Positions 40,885-51,700 of a stretch of DNA of 64,000 bases are shown in pieces. The stretch lies in the IMG/VR virus record IMGVR_UViG_3300045999_009829; one strand, written 5' to 3'. Position 1 is the stretch's first letter; every line of letters starts with the position of its first letter. The notes under the pieces are model-generated. The model was given only the letters and a program-made list of their open reading frames with translations. It was not told the DNA's origin and ran no database searches. This DNA is from a virus. A program made the position numbers and the translations under genes.

Positions 40885-41541
40885 CTATTCCCGTTGATCG
40901 TCTTCTGATTTCATGTACATGACTGTATCCGTATCGCCGAGGGACCACTTTGACTCGGCTTCGACCGACCACTTAGTCTTTGCAACTCGGAAGTCCGGGA
41001 ACTTCAGGGTGCTCGGGTTGTTGGACGGCTCGAGGATGATGGTGCGGTTGTTGGGCTGTGCGGCAAACTGACCGTTGTCGCACTTGATGAAATTGAAGGA
41101 CTTGTGGTCCTCCGTATCCTCACTGAACCCTGTATTCAGTATATTACCATCTGGAAAGCTACTGTCAACCGTAAACATGTAGGTGCCCCAAGTCCACTGC
41201 TTGTTCTTGTTTAGGAACTTGCACCGCAGACCACTGATGAGCTTTTTCTCTAGGATCGTAACGTCATATGACATGCAGTCCCAGATCTGCAGGTAATCAA
41301 GCGGTAGTAGTTCATCAGGGTTCACGTCCGTCCGCCAGACGTAGGCGTGGATCGGGAGCTTGTCATACAGCGCACCGTAGTTGTGCAGGTACGACTCGAT
41401 CCTAAACGCCTCGCCTCGGATGGACTTCAGAGAGACCCAGAAGCACGGCTCAAACTCGCCGTGCCCCTTCTCGAAGTCATAGAGAAACTCTCTGCGAACA
41501 TAGCACCTCACAGGCGGTAGGTTCGCGATCAGGTGAGCCAT
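40885..41541 (-). CDS. Conserved hypothetical protein between nrdA and nrdB
   Basis: L.ANLPP..C.VR.E.LYD..GHGE, GAL.DKLP, LQ.WDC, HKSFN....NGQFAAQPNNR. Confidence 0.75.
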   Translation of the reverse strand: MAHLIANLPPVRCYVRREFLYDFEKGHGEFEPCFWVSLKSIRGEAFRIESYLHNYGALYDKLPIHAYVWRTDVNPDELLPLDYLQIWDCMSYDVTILEKKLISGLRCKFLNKNKQWTWGTYMFTVDSSFPDGNILNTGFSEDTEDHKSFNFIKCDNGQFAAQPNNRTIILEPSNNPSTLKFPDFRVAKTKWSVEAESKWSLGDTDTVMYMKSEDDQRE

Positions 41542-43864: not shown

Positions 43865-43872
43865 TATAAATA
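43865..43872 (+). promoter_or_regulatory. T4-type late promoter TATAAATA
   Basis: Perfect consensus upstream of the membrane-protein pair. Confidence 0.75.
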
Positions 43873-43880
43873 GCTGAAAA

Positions 43881-44180
43881 GTGGAGGACACCATGGACGT
43901 AAACTCTTGGTTCAAGTTGGTAGCCGATTTAGGCTTTCCGATAGCCTCGGCTCTTGCGGGAGGCTACTTCGTGTTTCTGACCATGAAGTTCATCCTGTCA
44001 GGAGTCTTAAGTTCGGTGAAGAGCCTCAGCGGCATCATTACGGCTCTCGACAACAGAGTCAAGACAATGAACCACGACGTCATCCGAATTGATACCCTTG
44101 TCAGTAACGCGATGGGCGTCAAGCCTGACGTCGAGCGAATTGCAAGGGCAGACGGAAAGAACGACGCCCGTAGAGATTGA
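43881..44180 (+). CDS. Small membrane protein (GFPI family), paralog 1
   Basis: LGFPIASALAGGYFVF transmembrane segment plus a coiled coil. Confidence 0.7.
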   Translation: MEDTMDVNSWFKLVADLGFPIASALAGGYFVFLTMKFILSGVLSSVKSLSGIITALDNRVKTMNHDVIRIDTLVSNAMGVKPDVERIARADGKNDARRD

Positions 44181-44236: not shown

Positions 44237-44566
44237 ATGGGCGGTGTAGTAGAACTCATAAGCAAGTATGGGTTTCCGATCGTGGCGGCCGGCGGGCTTG
44301 GCTACTTTGTCTACTACGTTTGGATCTGGGCCACCAAGGAAATCAAGCCCGTCCTCTCAGACGCAAGCAGTGTACTTATAGCGCTCATAGACCGAATCCG
44401 AATGCTTGACAACGACTTGATCAGGCTCAACCAGAAGGTCAACGTAGTCCTCATGCTGCGAGAGATGGAGCATGAGGAACTGGTCAAGAAGGCGGCTGAG
44501 TTCCGTCAAGCGGATCGGGAGACCAAGAAGGAAGCGCCTCCCGAAAAGCCGCCTACTTCGAAGTAG
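44237..44566 (+). CDS. Small membrane protein (GFPI family), paralog 2
   Basis: YGFPIVAAGGLGYFVY transmembrane segment plus LIDRIRMLDNDLIRL. Confidence 0.7.
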   Translation: MGGVVELISKYGFPIVAAGGLGYFVYYVWIWATKEIKPVLSDASSVLIALIDRIRMLDNDLIRLNQKVNVVLMLREMEHEELVKKAAEFRQADRETKKEAPPEKPPTSK

Positions 44567-46577
44567 CCCTGTACACGCCGTCAAAGCCCTTCGGCGGAGA
44601 GTAACTTTCCATTCTCTCCGCCATCATCTTGTAGTAGTCAACCAGCTCGCCGTCAAACAGCGGCTTGAGGTTGGGCAGCATTGACCTGGCAATGTCCCAC
44701 CTGCCCTTGCGATACGCGGTCAGGAACTCCTGATGCAGGTTCATCGCCAGTATGTCTCTGTTCTTGACTACGGTATAGATCGACACGGGCTCGGTCTTGC
44801 CCTTGACCGCTAGTAGGTCAAGCTCGACCACGTTGAACTCTCCCATGACTTGCTCTGCGGTCTTTGGACCAAGGACCAACTTCACGCCGTATGGCTTTGA
44901 CTGTCCCTCAAGCCTTGCCGCTAGGTTCACGCTGTCGCCCAAGCACGTGTAGTCAAACCTCTGGTCACTGCCCATGTTGCCGACCACGACTGAACCCGTA
45001 TTGATGCCCAGGCCCATGCCGAACGCAGGCACTCCCTCCTTGGCGATCTCGTCGTTGAACCTCTTTAGGTCGTCAAGCATAGCAAGTGCCGTGCGGACTG
45101 CATCGACTGCGTGCTTTTCGTTGTCAAGCGGAGCATTCCAGAATGCCATCTGGGCATCGCCGATGTACTTATCAAGAGTGCCGTTGTTCTCTAAGATCTT
45201 TGCTGTCATGGCAGTCATGTAGCGATTCATGATCTGAGTCAGGCCCTGGACGTTGTCGCCGTAGTGCTCAGAGATGGTGGTGAATCCTCGAACGTCGGTG
45301 AACATGATCGACAGCTCTCTGGTCTCACCGCCGAGCTTCAAGAGCTCTGGATTCTTCTGCAGCTTCTCCACCATGTCGGGAGACAGGTACGTGCCGAACT
45401 GCTTCTTGATCTGCTGCTTGAGTCTGAACTCCTCCATGGCTCTAGAGAATGCGGCAGCGGAGAACACAAGTATTGCTGCGGTGATAGGGAACACGGCGTC
45501 AAATAGGACCATGTACTCGGCTCTGGCAAACAGCGAGGCGTAGGCGACCCACCCGATTACAAACACCACGACTGGTCCGCCGACTATCAGTCTCGTCCGT
45601 AGGGCCATCAGTATTACCAGTAGACCGACAAGGAGCGATACAGCTAGCTCGTACGTGTCTGCCTCTGCCTGTCTGGTCACAAACAGTCGATTTATGACAG
45701 ATGACAGCTCAGTCGCTATGACCTTTGCCGGCAGCATCTCGCCGTGACTTGTGGCGACCGGGTTGCTGAATCCCTCGGCGGTCAGTGACAGGATGACTAT
45801 CGTTCCGTCCAGATCATCCGGGAGGTCCAGCACTGAGTATGATTCGTACCTGAACGAGCGAACGGGCCAAAGTCGACTGTTGGGGTCTGTGTATAGCAGA
45901 GGTTGCCCGGGTATCCTCAGCACCTCTACACCCAGATCGTTTGATCTGATCTGAAAGCTGACCTCGTCGGACAGCACTCGAAGAGTCTCTAGAATCAGTG
46001 ATGGATAGACCTTGTCGCCCACCGACACAAGCATCGGACTGCGACGAACTACGCCGTCGGGCTCTGGCATGGTGGCTATCATGCCCACGCCAGATGCCGC
46101 TTCAGCAAACTGAGGCAGCGGCGGTATGGCGCCGGGCCATGAGGGCAGGACGTCGTTGATAGGAGGACCGATCAGGGCATAGCCTCTGTCCCTGGCAAAC
46201 GGCTCTCTTGCCTGTGTTGTCGGCGCCTGAGCCAGGATGACCGTGTGCTCTCTCAGGGCATTCTCTAGGTCTGAGTCCTTGCCTGACCTATCAGTCTCCG
46301 AGAACAGTATGGGCACCACTATAGCCGCGGCGCCTCTGTCCATGATGTCGTTGATGTATCGGGCGACAACATCTCTGGGCCATGGCCATTGACCGTTCTG
46401 CTGTAGAGCCGCCTCGTCTATGTTGACTAGCACTATCCCCGGATCGTTGATGACGGCCTGCTGGCGCTCGAGGAAGTCAAAGTACTTCATCCTTGCAACC
46501 TCAACGGGCCATGGATCAAAAGCTCTGATCGCCAGTAAGGCGACTAGGATCAATGCGGAGAGGATGTATTTCTTCAT
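44553..46577 (-). CDS. CHASE2-domain class III adenylate cyclase
   Basis: IV.V.IDE..L...GQWPWPR, D.DGVVR, three TM helices, F..YLSP..V..L, FTDVRGFT, DKYIGDA.MAFW, DYT.LGD.VN.AARLE. Confidence 0.93.
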   Translation of the reverse strand: MKKYILSALILVALLAIRAFDPWPVEVARMKYFDFLERQQAVINDPGIVLVNIDEAALQQNGQWPWPRDVVARYINDIMDRGAAAIVVPILFSETDRSGKDSDLENALREHTVILAQAPTTQAREPFARDRGYALIGPPINDVLPSWPGAIPPLPQFAEAASGVGMIATMPEPDGVVRRSPMLVSVGDKVYPSLILETLRVLSDEVSFQIRSNDLGVEVLRIPGQPLLYTDPNSRLWPVRSFRYESYSVLDLPDDLDGTIVILSLTAEGFSNPVATSHGEMLPAKVIATELSSVINRLFVTRQAEADTYELAVSLLVGLLVILMALRTRLIVGGPVVVFVIGWVAYASLFARAEYMVLFDAVFPITAAILVFSAAAFSRAMEEFRLKQQIKKQFGTYLSPDMVEKLQKNPELLKLGGETRELSIMFTDVRGFTTISEHYGDNVQGLTQIMNRYMTAMTAKILENNGTLDKYIGDAQMAFWNAPLDNEKHAVDAVRTALAMLDDLKRFNDEIAKEGVPAFGMGLGINTGSVVVGNMGSDQRFDYTCLGDSVNLAARLEGQSKPYGVKLVLGPKTAEQVMGEFNVVELDLLAVKGKTEPVSIYTVVKNRDILAMNLHQEFLTAYRKGRWDIARSMLPNLKPLFDGELVDYYKMMAERMESYSPPKGFDGVYRATSK

Positions 46578-47971
46578 TATTGCCCCTGTATCACCGTTAT
46601 GGCTGCACAACTAGCGGTAGCGCAGTTGTGAGTGATTGAGTAGTGCTGTTGGGTGCTGCCCGTCTGTGTAGTCGTGATGGAAGTTGAACCGCCGCTTAAC
46701 TCGATCCTCGCCATGTGGTTGCCAGAACCAGACTGATTCACGTTTACGGTCTTGTTGCCGCCCAATAGGTTGATCTCAGCATAGTGTGACCCTGCGTTCT
46801 GTTGCTGCACCGTTATGGAGTTCACGTTGTTGCCTACAGTAGCAAGAACTCCTCTGGAACCACCGGTGCCTGATTGATTTATGGTTGTAGAGTTATTGCT
46901 TCCTTGGATGGTGGTCTCTATGTAGTTTGTGCTGTTATTGGAGTTCTGTGTGATGTTGGCGATGTTATTGGATCCATTGACTGTGTACTGCGTAAAGTTC
47001 CTTGTGCCCAGCTGAGTGACATTGGCTGTATTGGAGTTGCCGACCTGCTCGATGATCACTCTGCTGTCACCAGTTGCAGTAAACGTCTGCACACGTCCTG
47101 TAAATGCGGCATTGGAGTTGAATGGCGTGGCACTACCGCCGCAGCAAAGAGAGGGTGCGGCCGCGGGCGGGGGCGGGGCGGATGAGCCAGCATTTGGCTG
47201 GACGGGAGCAAACGTCTGCCCGTTCAGTGTGGTCGTGCCCTGAATCTCATCAACTAGTAGGATCGGACTCAAAGCTGTATCACCAAGGTTAAAGCTAGCA
47301 AACCCCAGTGTGTATGTTCCTGTTTCCGGAACCGTAAATGTTGCCACCTGCCATCCAGTTGAGCCGTAGCTGCCGGTAGAGTAGTTGCCCGTGCCGGGAT
47401 TAGTAAACCCAAGCAGTCCGTATCTGCGCTGTAGGTTGTTCAGCGTTGGAATCTTGCTTGCATCCGTAGAGTGGACCAACGTGATCAGAGAGCCGTCATT
47501 GAACGGCGTGTAGTCAGAGGAGATGTACTGCCACGCTATGCTGTAGGTTACCCCGACTTGTAGTGCAACTGATCGCCTCAACCAGACTCCGTTTGTTGGG
47601 GTAGGATTACCACCACCGGTTTGAGCTTGCTGCTGCAGCATAGTTCTTATGGCTGTATTGTCTGCCTGCAGCAATCCAAGGCTAGACACTATGGAATCAA
47701 ATCCAGGAGCTCCGGAGCCAGCTTGTAGTGAGGCCATGTGTGTTCCATGCGGCGTGACATTCCATGTCTTACCGCCACCTGGCGCAAAGTTAGTTACTCC
47801 TGTGACAACAGCCACGCCCACACCATTGGCGCCCCAACCTGTAGGACCACGGGTTGCATTGTTGCTTGCGGTCCATCCAGTTAGGTTGCCAAGCTCAAAT
47901 CCATAGTTGTCCTGAGCCGTTGCTGTGGTAGCAAACAGCAGTACAAACAATGCGGCAAGTAATCTGATCAT
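46577..47971 (-). CDS. Secreted protein: N-terminal beta-sandwich-like domain, Pro linker and C-terminal curlin repeats
   Basis: Signal peptide; FE.G.L.GW start; IEQVGNSN, TQLG..N, NQSG, QSGSGNH repeats. Confidence 0.75.
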   Translation of the reverse strand: MIRLLAALFVLLFATTATAQDNYGFELGNLTGWTASNNATRGPTGWGANGVGVAVVTGVTNFAPGGGKTWNVTPHGTHMASLQAGSGAPGFDSIVSSLGLLQADNTAIRTMLQQQAQTGGGNPTPTNGVWLRRSVALQVGVTYSIAWQYISSDYTPFNDGSLITLVHSTDASKIPTLNNLQRRYGLLGFTNPGTGNYSTGSYGSTGWQVATFTVPETGTYTLGFASFNLGDTALSPILLVDEIQGTTTLNGQTFAPVQPNAGSSAPPPPAAAPSLCCGGSATPFNSNAAFTGRVQTFTATGDSRVIIEQVGNSNTANVTQLGTRNFTQYTVNGSNNIANITQNSNNSTNYIETTIQGSNNSTTINQSGTGGSRGVLATVGNNVNSITVQQQNAGSHYAEINLLGGNKTVNVNQSGSGNHMARIELSGGSTSITTTQTGSTQQHYSITHNCATASCAAITVIQGQ

Positions 47972-49053
47972 CTGTTCCAGATCCTTACTGTTACTCTGCT
48001 TCCACCGTCACCGCTGACCCTAGACTGAGTGTCGACCTCATTGATAGAGATGCTGTATGTCGTGTTGTCGGTGCGCTCGCCGGTGTAGATTCTGATCACG
48101 TTGTTGCGCTGCTCGTCCTCTCTGTGATACCAGTTTCTACCCCTCTCGTTCCCACAAGCGTTGAATGGCCAACACGGGTTCGTGGGGGACACGTCGCCTT
48201 GCATCTCCGCTGTGGATGACACAAGCAATCTAGTCGATGAAGATGACTCTGATTGTTGGTGATTGGATTCAGCGCTACTGGAGGAAGTCGCTCTCTGCTC
48301 CTCGCTCGACACAGCACTGCGGTTGCGGTCCCTTTCTCTAGCCTCATTGCGCTGCTGCTCTGCAGCCAATATGCCCTCGGGCTTGCGCAGGGCTAGATCA
48401 TTGCTGATGGTGGCTATGTTTGCTTCTATTCGGACTGGGGGCAGGGGTTGCTGATTAGCGTCTGTAACGTACGTGGCTGTAAATGGCTGAGTCAGGGTAA
48501 CAGACCCCGCTGCCGTTATGACGTCGATTATGCCCACTGTGCAGTTGCCAGAGATCTCAAAGCGATTGATTTCTCTGGGGTCATTGCACGAGGGAAGCAG
48601 CACCACAAAGCTACGCCCCGCTTCATCCACCGACATCGCCATGTCAGTTCCCCTTACAGCAACTGTGGCTGTAGGAGTTGAGATGTTTAGGTTCTGTCGA
48701 TTGGATCTAGCTATCTGACCAGACGTGTACTGAACTGTGCCCAGAGTGACTCTCATCGCCATCCTGCCAGCATCGGATCGGTTGGGATCGAACACGAAGC
48801 TGTCGATGACTAGTCTGGAGTTCTCTTTGATCTTGACTCTGGTGTTGTCCTGGAACGTGATGTTGGTCTCCGCTCTGGAGCCAACAAGCACGGTGTCCAT
48901 GCTCTCTATGCTTGTGTTCTGTTGACCCGGTATAGAGTTTGAACCTCGTCTGATTTCAACGGTTGTCCCCGTCTGCTCAGAGACTCTGCCGACGGCAGCG
49001 TGAGCCACCGTCGGCATTAGGCATAACAATAATCCCACCAGTAGCTTTTTCAT
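47968..49053 (-). CDS. FecR-domain secreted/periplasmic protein
   Basis: Signal peptide; I.F.D.T.V.I.ENS.L.ID.FVFDP, G....SG.IA, TPTATVAVRGTD. Confidence 0.88.
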   Translation of the reverse strand: MKKLLVGLLLCLMPTVAHAAVGRVSEQTGTTVEIRRGSNSIPGQQNTSIESMDTVLVGSRAETNITFQDNTRVKIKENSRLVIDSFVFDPNRSDAGRMAMRVTLGTVQYTSGQIARSNRQNLNISTPTATVAVRGTDMAMSVDEAGRSFVVLLPSCNDPREINRFEISGNCTVGIIDVITAAGSVTLTQPFTATYVTDANQQPLPPVRIEANIATISNDLALRKPEGILAAEQQRNEARERDRNRSAVSSEEQRATSSSSAESNHQQSESSSSTRLLVSSTAEMQGDVSPTNPCWPFNACGNERGRNWYHREDEQRNNVIRIYTGERTDNTTYSISINEVDTQSRVSGDGGSRVTVRIWNR

Positions 49054-49057
49054 GCTA

Positions 49058-49726
49058 CTATCTGCCGGTGGAGATCGTTACTGCGTTTGAGTTACCGGTT
49101 GTAGTTAGATTAACAGTCGTGTCTGCGGTGCCATGCTGAGTGATAGAGTGCGTGTTGCTTGTGCCGGTGATTGCGGCGACAAGTACGTGACCTGCACCAG
49201 CGCTTGCCCCAGTCATTGAGCTTGTAAGTGTGTTAGAGTCACCGAGGATCGTGATAGAGCTTGAGCTGCTGTTTGTGGTGATGGTCTGTGTCACAGCATT
49301 TGAGTTGCCTGTGATGTCAAGTGTGTTGGTGATGTTGCTGCCTCTGATAGTTGAGGTAACGGTGTTGAGATCACCAGCGATCGTCATTGTGCTAGTTACG
49401 GCCGTGCATGCAGTCGTGTTGTTGCCGCAGTTGAACGTGATCTGGTTTGTGTCGCCAGTCACGGTCTTTGTGATGGTGTTGTTGTCACCGATCACCTCAT
49501 AGTCAATGATGTTGGCGTCACCTGTCTGAGTTGTCGATAGTGTGTTGTTGCTACCAGTGATGCTAGATGGGGACTGTGCAGTTCCTACGCGGTTGGTGTT
49601 TCCCATCTGTGTGATGTTAACTGTATTGGTGCTACCGACCTGCTCGATGTGAACTAGGTTCTGAGCAAGCAGAGGTGAAGCTGTTAGTAGAAAAAGACCT
49701 ACTGCAGCTACTATTTTTCTGAGCAT
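49058..49726 (-). CDS. Curlin-like (CsgA/CsgB-type) repeat protein
   Basis: Signal peptide ending in LA-Q, then many 11-residue I/V-x-Q/I-x-G-x-x-N repeats. Confidence 0.8.
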   Translation of the reverse strand: MLRKIVAAVGLFLLTASPLLAQNLVHIEQVGSTNTVNITQMGNTNRVGTAQSPSSITGSNNTLSTTQTGDANIIDYEVIGDNNTITKTVTGDTNQITFNCGNNTTACTAVTSTMTIAGDLNTVTSTIRGSNITNTLDITGNSNAVTQTITTNSSSSSITILGDSNTLTSSMTGASAGAGHVLVAAITGTSNTHSITQHGTADTTVNLTTTGNSNAVTISTGR

Positions 49727-49742
49727 TTTCCGTCCTATTTGA

Positions 49743-50552
49743 TTATGGTGAAGTGGGTGCAAATTGCCAGACGCCTCTTCGTTCACCATCAAATATTATT
49801 TCAGTTACAGCGCCCAAAATAGCCAATTGTACTGCATAGTTCATGCTTTCATTAGAAGCAGCACCGGTCTCCATCTCCAATGACCGTGTGCCGAGTTCAT
49901 TGAACCTGAGCACACTTACCTTGTCTTGCCAGCTGACAACAGTCTTGCTGACAGTTACCGACGAAAGAACTTCGCCCGTGGCTACGCTTACAGCACGAAG
50001 GTTGACCACTACTTCATCTTGCCTGTACTCGGTTAGACCGCCGATGCCCAGGACCCTGGCGCCAAGACCGCCACTCATTAGATTTGAGTCGTAGCCTATG
50101 ATGCCGCCTTCAAAGATCATGCCGGCAAACACGAGCGGTGGGAGTGGTCTTGCGTTTGGACCCTCATACAGCTCGCGCATCTGACGAATCAGCTGGCGCT
50201 CCTTGATCAGGTTGTCCAATCCGCCTCGCTCGACTACTCGGAACCAACGGCCGTTGCCAACCGTCTGCAGCGTACGAACTAGATACGCGTCAGCACCCTG
50301 AGTCACTGCGGAGCTCAAGGTGGCTATGTTTTGACTTGCTCTTCTCTGACCTGTTAGGTCTCTGAACTGATACACGGCAACCGTGACTGCACCTGTGGCA
50401 GGCGCCGGTATCTCTCTGGGAGTTTCTAGTGCTGGATTGACAAGCTCCGGGTCTCTTGTTCCGAGCCCGACTTGCTCTCGTAGGTCTCTACCGAGCTGAC
50501 CGCAGCCAGACAGTAGCAGACCCGCTAAGATGATGATGGGGATGTTCTTCAT
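49743..50552 (-). CDS. csgG: Curli secretion channel lipoprotein CsgG
   Basis: Lipobox LSGC; VAVY.F.DLTGQR, SSAVTQG, WF.VVER.GL.NL.KERQLIR, EGGI.GYDSN, YR.D.V.V.LR.VSV.TGE.L..V...KT. Confidence 0.95.
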   Translation of the reverse strand: MKNIPIIILAGLLLSGCGQLGRDLREQVGLGTRDPELVNPALETPREIPAPATGAVTVAVYQFRDLTGQRRASQNIATLSSAVTQGADAYLVRTLQTVGNGRWFRVVERGGLDNLIKERQLIRQMRELYEGPNARPLPPLVFAGMIFEGGIIGYDSNLMSGGLGARVLGIGGLTEYRQDEVVVNLRAVSVATGEVLSSVTVSKTVVSWQDKVSVLRFNELGTRSLEMETGAASNESMNYAVQLAILGAVTEIIFDGERRGVWQFAPTSP

Positions 50553-51001
50553 GGCGCCATCCACCCAAAGTCCCCGATGGGCACATTCATGGTGGTGACT
50601 GAACCGGCAGAGTCCCTGATGGTCACTGCTATCAGATTACCGGTCTTTGAGTACGATATAGTACCGCCATTGAAGGCAAAGGTACCCGAGGCTTGAGCAC
50701 CAGTGCCTTCAAATAGCTTTTCGGTAATCTGTCTGGCTAGTTCGTTGTAGACTCTACTCTCTAGGTTTGTGATGAACCTAGCCATAGTGGTGTTCTGAGC
50801 TGTCTGCTCGGCTCTGAGCTGCGCTGCCTTTCTTTCGGCTTCGACAGCTATCCTTCTTGACAGCTCCATGTTGTAGACAGTAAGCACATGACTGCTGTAG
50901 CCAACACCCGAGAAGGCAGGCGAGTTGAATTGGAAGAGTATTTCACTTGATTTCGCGGGATTAATGATGAAGACCATAACGATGAGAAGCAGTGCTCTCA
51001 T
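50549..51001 (-). CDS. csgF: Curli assembly component CsgF
   Basis: Signal peptide; F.F.SPAFSG.G...H.L, F..NLESR.Y..LA.Q, G..T...VP. Confidence 0.85.
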   Translation of the reverse strand: MRALLLIVMVFIINPAKSSEILFQFNSPAFSGVGYSSHVLTVYNMELSRRIAVEAERKAAQLRAEQTAQNTTMARFITNLESRVYNELARQITEKLFEGTGAQASGTFAFNGGTISYSKTGNLIAVTIRDSAGSVTTMNVPIGDFGWMAP

Positions 51002-51006
51002 TCGAT

Positions 51007-51047
51007 GTCTCCTGGACCACTATTGGTCCTTGCGGAGACTATTTATG
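51007..51047 (-). promoter_or_regulatory. Late promoter CATAAATA plus an SD-sequestering two-part hairpin in front of csgF
   Basis: The - strand reads CATAAATA-GTCTCC-GCAA-GGACCA-ATAG-TGGTCC-A-GGAGAC-ATCGA-ATG. Confidence 0.75.
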
Positions 51048-51049
51048 GT

Positions 51050-51700
51050 TTAACTCTGGGTTAGGAACTTGAAGTACTTACTAATTTCACCCCAGGCAGA
51101 CGTGGCGACCTCGATGTGCTCCTTCTGTGTGCCGTTCTCCATGCGGAGCTCACAGTAGTGGATCCAGGAACGCAGAGTGCCGTTCATATACATTCGTGAG
51201 AGAGTCAGGCCCTCAGGCAGTACTGCACGTGCCTGTTCCTTAGCGATACCAGCTTTGATAGCTTCACTGTATACAAATTCAGCAGTATCCCACACGCTAC
51301 GCTGATGGAAATGCCACCAGTCTTGCAGTTCTTGGTCTTCAACCTCAATGCTGTTCTGTCGATTCTTGGTGTCCTGCAGTCGAGCCTCGCGAGTCACAAA
51401 GCCGAGGTCCTTGGTCGGATCGGCGTAGCGCTGGGAAAACTCCTGGAAAGAGAATGAGCGGTGCCGAAGGATCTGTCGGGCAATGTCACGTGTCGTCTCG
51501 ATTTCCATGACCACGTTGACCATCTCGAACACGCTGAAGTGCTTGTGGCGGATGCAGTATCGAAGAAGCTTCTCGCTTGTCTCGGAGTTGATCTGGTTGG
51601 ATGGATTGGAGACTCGAGCCGCATACGCAATGAACTGATCTGAGGTATCTACGCCCTCGATCAGTGGGTTGGTGATGGCTACAATCTTAGCGCTGTTCAT
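51050..51700 (-). CDS. thyX: Flavin-dependent thymidylate synthase
   Basis: ARVSNP, H.S.FE, RQILRHRSFSFQEFSQRY, KE.AR.VLP, RSWIHY..LR, Q.EH. Confidence 0.95.
   Translation of the reverse strand: MNSAKIVAITNPLIEGVDTSDQFIAYAARVSNPSNQINSETSEKLLRYCIRHKHFSVFEMVNVVMEIETTRDIARQILRHRSFSFQEFSQRYADPTKDLGFVTREARLQDTKNRQNSIEVEDQELQDWWHFHQRSVWDTAEFVYSEAIKAGIAKEQARAVLPEGLTLSRMYMNGTLRSWIHYCELRMENGTQKEHIEVATSAWGEISKYFKFLTQS

Follow-up and report, generated by a model that had tools for sequence, protein, structure and literature searches.

What is a phage doing with the outer-membrane secretion genes of the curli system, set in one tight row with genes for a FecR-domain protein and a receptor adenylate cyclase? 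The question is raised by a 64,000-nucleotide stretch of viral DNA (IMG/VR virus record IMGVR_UViG_3300045999_009829; the whole stretch is hereafter called the window), in which six translationally coupled minus-strand open reading frames (ORFs) occupy positions 44553-51047. An earlier note, made from the sequence alone, had described six packed same-strand genes, namely csgF, csgG, a curlin-repeat gene, a FecR-domain gene, a second curlin gene and a CHASE2 adenylate cyclase gene, and both the ORF list and the Pfam searches agreed with this description. The cassette is, with near certainty, the published viral type VIII secretion system (T8SS, curli)-FecR-adenylate cyclase module, and the linkage of its genes is real, ancient in phages, under selection and already in the literature. 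The earlier note had called only the curli part known, but the coupling of FecR and cyclase to curli is not new either: it was published in 2022 and is annotated in the Methylophilales phage Melnitz. The window copy is an additional member of the module, carried by a divergent T4-like phage with a GC content of ~53%.

Relatives of the cyclase were found on at least 590 IMG/VR contigs; 80 loci were fetched, and 48 of them had at least 4.6 kb of DNA upstream of the cyclase gene and were informative for gene order. csgF, csgG and the FecR gene lay upstream of the cyclase gene, on the same strand, in 47 of these 48 loci, while in the last one (L065) the same three genes were inverted and downstream of the cyclase. 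The closest cyclases were 72% identical to that of the window (L003 and L004), and those of Melnitz and of Pelagibacter phage HTVC008M were 39 to 40% identical. A curlin gene with canonical repeats was kept in Melnitz, in HTVC008M and in the IMG/VR loci with enough upstream DNA, except for L022 and L041. When CsgG and the cyclase were used as tblastn queries, both led to the same two cultured groups, those of Melnitz and HTVC008M, whose GenBank annotations hold six genes in an order identical to that of the window (labeled in Melnitz as CsgF, CsgG, curlin repeat protein, FecR domain protein, curlin repeat protein, and adenylate/guanylate cyclase). The co-occurrence of FecR and cyclase with csgG, on which the earlier note had built its proposal, is thus conserved in other phages.

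It was in pelagiphage podoviruses and myoviruses that Wittmers et al. (2022; PMC9599517) described the module, calling it a viral T8SS, with FecR and adenylate cyclase named as its putative regulators and with one or two short "histidine kinase" genes preceding csgF. The same study reported an alphaproteobacterial origin of the module, its expression in metatranscriptomes and its presence at all 65 GOV2.0 stations. Compared with the cultured members (HTVC008M, KC465899; Melnitz, MZ577095-98), the window has the same gene set in the same order, thyX lies upstream of the cassette in the window and in Melnitz alike, and the short gene pair found before csgF in Melnitz and HTVC008M is homologous to two small window genes, o99 and o109, which are described below. 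The window differs in that its proteins are 31 to 50% identical to the cultured-phage copies, its GC content is ~53% versus 35 to 37%, and its small gene pair is inverted and downstream of the cyclase, unlike in Melnitz and HTVC008M. Furthermore, the cassette is followed by ribonucleotide reductase (RNR) genes in the window and by baseplate genes in the cultured phages, and the second curlin of the window carries a 240-residue passenger that is known from only a subset of relatives.

The window was recognized as phage DNA from its T4-like baseplate hub, tail protein, RNR and thyX genes (Pfam and protein matches), and one of its virion proteins is 62% identical to its counterpart in cyanophage S-RIM50. 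Given its GC content, the phage is not pelagiphage-like. No nucleotide match to the cassette was found by blastn against 50,697 phage records, and megablast of 25 kb of the window against the phage record collection gave no match either. With the likely start codons used (for csgG, ATG at 50552 in the ORF 49743-50564; for curlin 1, ATG at 49726 in the ORF 49058-49792; for the cyclase, ATG at 46577 in the ORF 44553-46610), every junction in the cassette is a gap or overlap of 16 nt or less.

The secretion genes come first in the cassette. CsgF (50549-51001) matched PF10614 across positions 2 to 132 of the 132 in the profile (E value of 1.9e-17), whereas a sequence search against the PDB gave no match of CsgF to solved structures. 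The protein has a signal peptide, and its mature N terminus then carries an FQF..P.F.G-type motif, which we take to be the CsgG-binding N-terminal segment of CsgG-CsgF structures. CsgG (49743-50552) matched PF03783 (1.3e-47) and the structures of E. coli CsgG (5.5e-45), and the lipobox LSGC of the earlier note, read here as LLSGC, marks it as a lipoprotein, as had been stated. In the alignment, the constriction residues Y51, N55 and F56 of E. coli CsgG are replaced by S, T and L in the phage protein; judged from this alignment, the phage constriction is a variant one, with membership in PF03783 unaffected. Set against the CsgBAC-CsgDEFG system of E. coli, the phage thus shares the CsgG lipoprotein pore, CsgF and Sec-signal subunits of the CsgA/B type, but it has the S/T/L constriction and adds FecR, the cyclase and a small transmembrane pair. 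CsgE, CsgC/H and CsgD were not recognized by Pfam among the eight phage ORFs that were scanned.

The two curlin calls of the earlier note gained support from matches to solved fibers that go beyond Pfam, in which both proteins stayed under the cut-off (Curlin_rpt E values of 8e-4 for curlin 1 and 2.8e-3 for curlin 2, with scores of 18 to 19.7 bits against a cut-off of 20.7 bits). Curlin 1 (49058-49726) has a signal peptide followed by half-repeats of ~11 residues of the form G..N.[ILV].[ILVT].Q, and a profile built from 23 homologues matched the CsgA-like fiber 8c50 (6e-12) and E. coli CsgA (8enq, 6.6e-4). The C terminus of curlin 2 (46577-47971) also matched 8c50 (1e-7). As the earlier note had held, the second curlin is fused to a globular domain: a signal peptide is followed by a β-sandwich passenger of ~240 residues, a Pro-rich linker and the C-terminal curlin repeats. 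The structural model of the passenger (predicted local distance difference test score, pLDDT, of 67) weakly resembles the jelly rolls of CBM4 and of gingipain adhesins (TM-scores of 0.3 to 0.38), and our best guess, a tentative one, is that the passenger may be a surface-displayed binding domain. The gene is less constant than the rest of the cassette. The closest relatives lack it, many loci have in its place a mini-protein of ~87 residues matching the final repeats of curlin 2, and the long form with the 240-residue passenger is found in a subset of relatives that includes the window. At one IMG/VR locus (L037, 2838-4700), just upstream of csgF, the curlin 2 passenger is followed not by curlin repeats but by another kind of C-terminal region, with ...GLTARF at its end. 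By eye, this region resembles the ending of an autotransporter-type outer-membrane β-barrel, and, if so, one passenger would be displayed through different secretion routes.

Between the two curlin genes lies the gene for the FecR-domain protein (47968-49053), for which the domain call of the earlier note was borne out by PF04773 (2.6e-10). The model of this protein (pLDDT of 78.7) consists of a confident β domain (residues 20-215), a helix (226-260), a disordered linker (264-297) and a C-terminal β domain (301-358) with a pLDDT of ~60. Among the homologues, the linker varies from 45 to more than 150 residues, a pair of cysteines is either present or absent jointly, and the FecR domain is the sole Pfam domain in all 32 sequences. 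Residues 50-219 superposed on the periplasmic signaling domain of PupR (6ovk; Z of 15.2, rmsd of 2.6 over 135 residues), showing that the phage protein has the periplasmic fold of FecR/PupR anti-sigma regulators. Those regulators, however, are anchored once in the membrane, carry an anti-sigma domain in the cytoplasm and work with a partner ECF sigma factor and a TonB-dependent transducer, whereas the phage protein has neither anchor nor anti-sigma domain; its signal peptide leads directly into the β domain. A FecR/PupR-type anti-sigma regulator was rejected on these grounds, and the protein is instead a secreted FecR-domain protein.

A second likeness involves residues 18-116, which superposed on 5ix9, the N-terminal domain of MpIBP that has been used for modeling the periplasmic retention module of LapA (Z of 7.2, rmsd of 2.3, 74 of 76 residues, 22% identity). 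There, too, a small N-terminal β domain is followed by a flexible segment, as in the phage FecR protein. LapA and MpIBP are, however, giant type I secreted adhesins that are kept in a TolC-like pore, and a Z of 7.2 does not establish homology to them. The C terminus of the FecR protein was also considered as a curlin repeat, from the pattern N..G....ITI.Q, and this was rejected, as hhalign gave a probability of 6% and none of the homologues matched Curlin_rpt. Finally, prediction of a complex between the CHASE2 part of the cyclase (residues 21-306) and the FecR domain (residues 20-226) gave a score of 0.31 with the mark at 0.32, which is evidence neither way.

The last gene encodes the receptor adenylate cyclase (44553-46577). 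Its CHASE2 match (PF05226, 1.2e-34) spans positions 3 to 256 of the 257 in the profile and is accompanied by a Guanylate_cyc match (2e-19); by eye, one transmembrane helix precedes CHASE2 and three follow it. The cyclase domain contains the motifs FTD, KYIGD, T..GDSVNLAARLE and KGK and aligns with P. aeruginosa CyaB (3r5g, 2.2e-30). The catalytic D, K, D, T, N and R and the Lys of KGK are invariant in 32 of 32 viral homologues, in which the cyclase domain is conserved far better than CHASE2. The alignment to CyaB and this invariance uphold the earlier description of a CHASE2-3TM class III cyclase with intact catalytic motifs, and the Lys/Thr pair presumably makes it an ATP-specific class IIIb enzyme. 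A search for the cNMP-binding family PF00027, positive in 11 of 14 control genomes, gave no match in the five large cassette-carrying phage records to which it was applied (completeness of at least 90% in four; the window was not among them); cyclic AMP (cAMP), if made, is therefore probably read by host proteins. The cyclase also has a C-terminal tail of ~70 residues (residues ~615-685; 44553-44765, minus strand) with an invariant H, Y, YY, R and DG..R...K, which had no Pfam match and is missing in the HTVC008M copy.

Bacterial counterparts were sought in 401 genomes of one class, that of the metagenome-assembled genome (MAG) G001 (titled Rhodobacteraceae bacterium Water_Bin34). In this sample, 137 genomes matched the FecR profile, 163 the cyclase profile and 8 CsgG. 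In at least 22 of the 401 genomes, a FecR match lay within 3 kb of a CHASE2-cyclase match, where by our own rough estimate about 2 genomes would be expected by chance, and this recurrence supports treating the two proteins as one sensor unit. Seven chromosomal csgG loci had csgF and curlin genes, and within ±10 kb of them no FecR, cyclase or o99/o109 gene was found by tblastn and no FecR or cyclase gene by hmmsearch. No bacterial locus in the sample searched had the full phage-type arrangement. With the bacterial FecR-cyclase pair standing apart from csgG, and csgG loci standing without the pair, the phage cassette joins two bacterial units, one for curli and one made up of the FecR-CHASE2-cyclase sensor pair.

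A search of the genome contigs with the cyclase gave five loci, all on short or MAG contigs that resemble phage DNA in bins. G001 itself has five csgG contigs (C87, C129, C173, C200 and C240), two of which also match FecR and the cyclase; with five such contigs, this bin evidently mixes DNA of several cassette-carrying phages. A separate observation was that FecR-profile matches also stand at the N termini of giant bacterial ORFs of 600 to 6900 residues (G269, G006 and G387 are among the genomes with ORFs of 2000 to 6900 residues), and these fit LapA-like adhesins with a FecR-like retention module.

Pairs of this kind have been described in the literature. An operon for a LysM-FecR protein and a CHASE2 histidine kinase is known from Burkholderia and from P. 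aeruginosa (PA4035-4036; PMC5192318), and in S. meliloti the FecR-domain protein SMc02177 is encoded next to the cyclase CyaD1 (SMc02176) and Clr, where CyaD1 becomes constitutively active when CHASE2 is removed (PMC5498481). As in the phage, a FecR protein with a signal peptide is encoded beside a CHASE2 membrane sensor; the bacterial pair is, however, unlinked to csgG, and the phage FecR protein is extended by a long linker and an additional β domain at its C terminus. The CHASE2 cyclases of S. meliloti answer a plant protein via the outer-membrane protein NsrA (PMC13001267). This cascade (NsrA, CyaD1/D2/K and Clr), in which a CHASE2 cyclase depends on a β-barrel and cAMP goes to a CRP-family regulator, is a trans-envelope precedent, although NsrA is not CsgG, no curli are involved and the system is cellular, not viral.

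Two small plus-strand genes that the earlier note had left out, o99 (43893-44180; 99 residues) and its paralogue o109 (44237-44566; 109 residues), converge on the cyclase gene, and the o109 stop codon overlaps that of the cyclase. Each product consists of a single transmembrane helix bearing a GFPI motif and of a coiled-coil tail. Neither had a Pfam match at E values up to 0.1; both matched phrog_18771 (7.6e-32 for o99 and 1.2e-31 for o109), and the N terminus of o109 weakly matched a holin PHROG (0.0046). From their position and the wording of the paper, o99 and o109 probably correspond to the genes that Wittmers et al. called "histidine kinase". That label does not fit, as no kinase domains (HisKA/DHp or HATPase_c) are present and phrog_18771, the only match, is a family of unknown function. 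With 45 to 91% identity among relatives, the pair is conserved better than the cassette proteins, and it adjoins the cassette in 41 of the 44 loci that have both flanks, upstream of csgF and on its strand in 22 (an arrangement shared by Melnitz and HTVC008M) and downstream and inverted, as in the window, in 19. Homologues among the 50,697 phage records were found in six records only, all of which carry the curli cassette, and metagenomes contain at least 8000 clusters of the family.

The cassette and the small pair also share signs of late expression, which the earlier note had likewise left out. The window holds five exact copies of the T4 late-promoter motif TATAAATA (0.22 expected) and ten copies of ATAAATA (1.5 expected). 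One of the exact copies (43865-43872, plus strand) lies 21 nt upstream of the o99 ATG, and a T4/cyanophage-type late-promoter motif, CATAAATA (NATAAATA), lies on the minus strand at 51039-51046, ~38 nt upstream of the csgF ATG. In 17 related loci the motif stands 21 to 30 nt upstream of csgF, and in none of these 17 is the pair upstream of csgF; where the pair does lie ahead of csgF, the motif is found upstream of o99 in 16 of 21 such loci. Judging from this placement, pair and cassette together make up a single late unit in the loci with o99 and o109 ahead of csgF.

Downstream of the motif in the window, RNA folding predicted a hairpin over the csgF Shine-Dalgarno sequence (51007-51039, minus strand; the fold of 50992-51050 has -18.1 kcal/mol and a z of -3.9). 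In its outer stem, GUCUCC/GGAGAC, the Shine-Dalgarno sequence pairs with the six bases just downstream of the late motif, and when the 5' arm was removed from the RNA, GGAGAC was predicted to be unpaired. According to this folding model, the csgF Shine-Dalgarno sequence is sequestered in read-through RNA only. Late transcripts, from the start point that we infer for them, probably lack the 5' arm of the hairpin. Together, CATAAATA and the csgF hairpin have the layout of the e/soc-style late-only translation design of T4.

How might these parts act together? Late in infection, CsgG would be exported by Sec as a lipoprotein and form an outer-membrane pore capped by CsgF, through which curlin 1 would exit and polymerize into curli-like fibers on the infected cell. 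Curlin 2 would enter the fiber by its C-terminal repeats and show its jelly-roll domain (adhesin or carbohydrate-binding-like). The FecR protein and the CHASE2 cyclase would form a bacterially derived envelope sensor encoded by two genes, turning a periplasmic or fiber cue into cAMP that host receptors would read, and the two small GFPI membrane proteins would be further parts of the late unit. We give this functional chain as a whole, from pore and fibers through FecR-CHASE2 sensing and host cAMP readout to the GFPI proteins, about an even chance of being right. Trans-envelope sensing by the cassette, as the earlier note had proposed, is plausible, whereas roles in lysis timing or superinfection sensing are speculation.

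Several points weigh against this chain. Fibers, cAMP production and contacts of FecR with CHASE2 or CsgG have all been inferred. Since csgE was not recognized and the constriction residues of CsgG are unlike those of E. coli, gating of the pore may differ. Curlin 2, being absent or only ~87 residues long in many relatives, is not essential to the module, and the jelly-roll assignment of its passenger model is weak. In the bacterial counterpart, SMc02177 was dispensable for signal perception by CyaD1 (PMC5498481), and Melnitz-infected cells showed no clumping (PMC9004378).

The module may alternatively consist of two cassettes that exchange no signal, an autonomous FecR-CHASE2 cyclase unit that floods or tunes host cAMP and a separate curli unit whose fibers serve aggregation, sibling capture or superinfection exclusion, the two being neighbors through co-inheritance and co-expression. 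This is in line with the at least 22 bacterial genomes that have FecR and the cyclase as a stand-alone pair, on contigs free of csgG matches, with the bacterial csgG loci that lack the pair and with the report that podoviruses carry the second curlin and the cyclase less often (PMC9599517). However, the gene order is kept in 47 of 48 loci, translation of the genes is coupled, and FecR sits between the two curlin genes and not beside a separable cyclase unit. We regard two independent cassettes as unlikely.

The layout of the FecR protein suggests another arrangement, in which its folded, disulfide-locked N-terminal domain is unable to get through the constriction of CsgG and is retained on the periplasmic side, while the helix, linker and C-terminal domain are threaded through CsgG and mechanically link the surface or the fiber to CHASE2. 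Such a tether across the outer membrane would let surface contact, aggregation or a second phage raise cAMP through CHASE2 late in infection, possibly in joint action with the two GFPI proteins on lysis timing. The confident N-terminal β domain, the linker of 45 to more than 150 residues and the small C-terminal β domain suit this design, residues 18-116 superpose on the 5ix9 retention module, FecR-profile matches head giant bacterial ORFs, and the cysteine pair co-varies across homologues. On the other hand, matches between common folds also reach a Z of 7.2, the C-terminal domain is no curlin repeat and has a pLDDT of only ~60, and export of the tail is presumed. We think a threaded FecR protein quite improbable.

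Buchholz et al. (2022; PMC9004378) proposed for Melnitz that the CsgGF pore regulates lysis. Read in this way, CsgG/CsgF would be a gated channel, the cyclase would set the timing, fibers would be secondary, and the small proteins with one transmembrane helix would be holin/antiholin- or i-spanin-like partners. That csgE was not recognized, that late-promoter motifs are present and that no clumping was seen with Melnitz would all suit a lysis device, as would a small transmembrane and coiled-coil pair that travels with the cassette and in which o109 has the weak holin PHROG match. Nevertheless, the curlin gene is kept in nearly all informative loci and matches solved curli fibers, and an outer-membrane pore of ~1 nm is insufficient by itself for cell lysis; we consider a device of this kind rather improbable. 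It is very improbable indeed that the phage recently took up the cassette passively from a host or carries it as functionless, decaying cargo: although CsgG is as close to bacterial copies (42 to 49% identity) as to many viral ones (45 to 57%), diverged and intact copies occur on at least 590 viral contigs, viral copies are 39 to 72% identical to each other, the catalytic residues are invariant in the 32 homologues, phage late-promoter motifs are present, the seven bacterial csgG loci lack FecR and cyclase, and no bacterial locus of this arrangement turned up in the sample searched.

If the cassette acts as the pore, fiber and sensor chain proposed above, infected cells would gain a surface structure, and probably also a second-messenger signal, that at least the SAR11 and OM43 hosts of the cultured phages are unable to produce on their own. 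Few multi-gene envelope modules of aquatic T4-like phages are as widespread as this cassette, whose function bears on plankton aggregation, particle formation, superinfection and lysis control. To the published account the window adds little beyond the reach of the module into a high-GC T4-like lineage; it does point to two further conserved components and to late expression, and the analysis sets the curli genes apart from a FecR-CHASE2 sensor pair of bacteria.

Elsewhere in the window, a gene for a 218-residue protein annotated as "ferredoxin" (phrog_3704, 7.7e-83) lies on the minus strand at 40885-41541, between the genes for the small and large RNR subunits.

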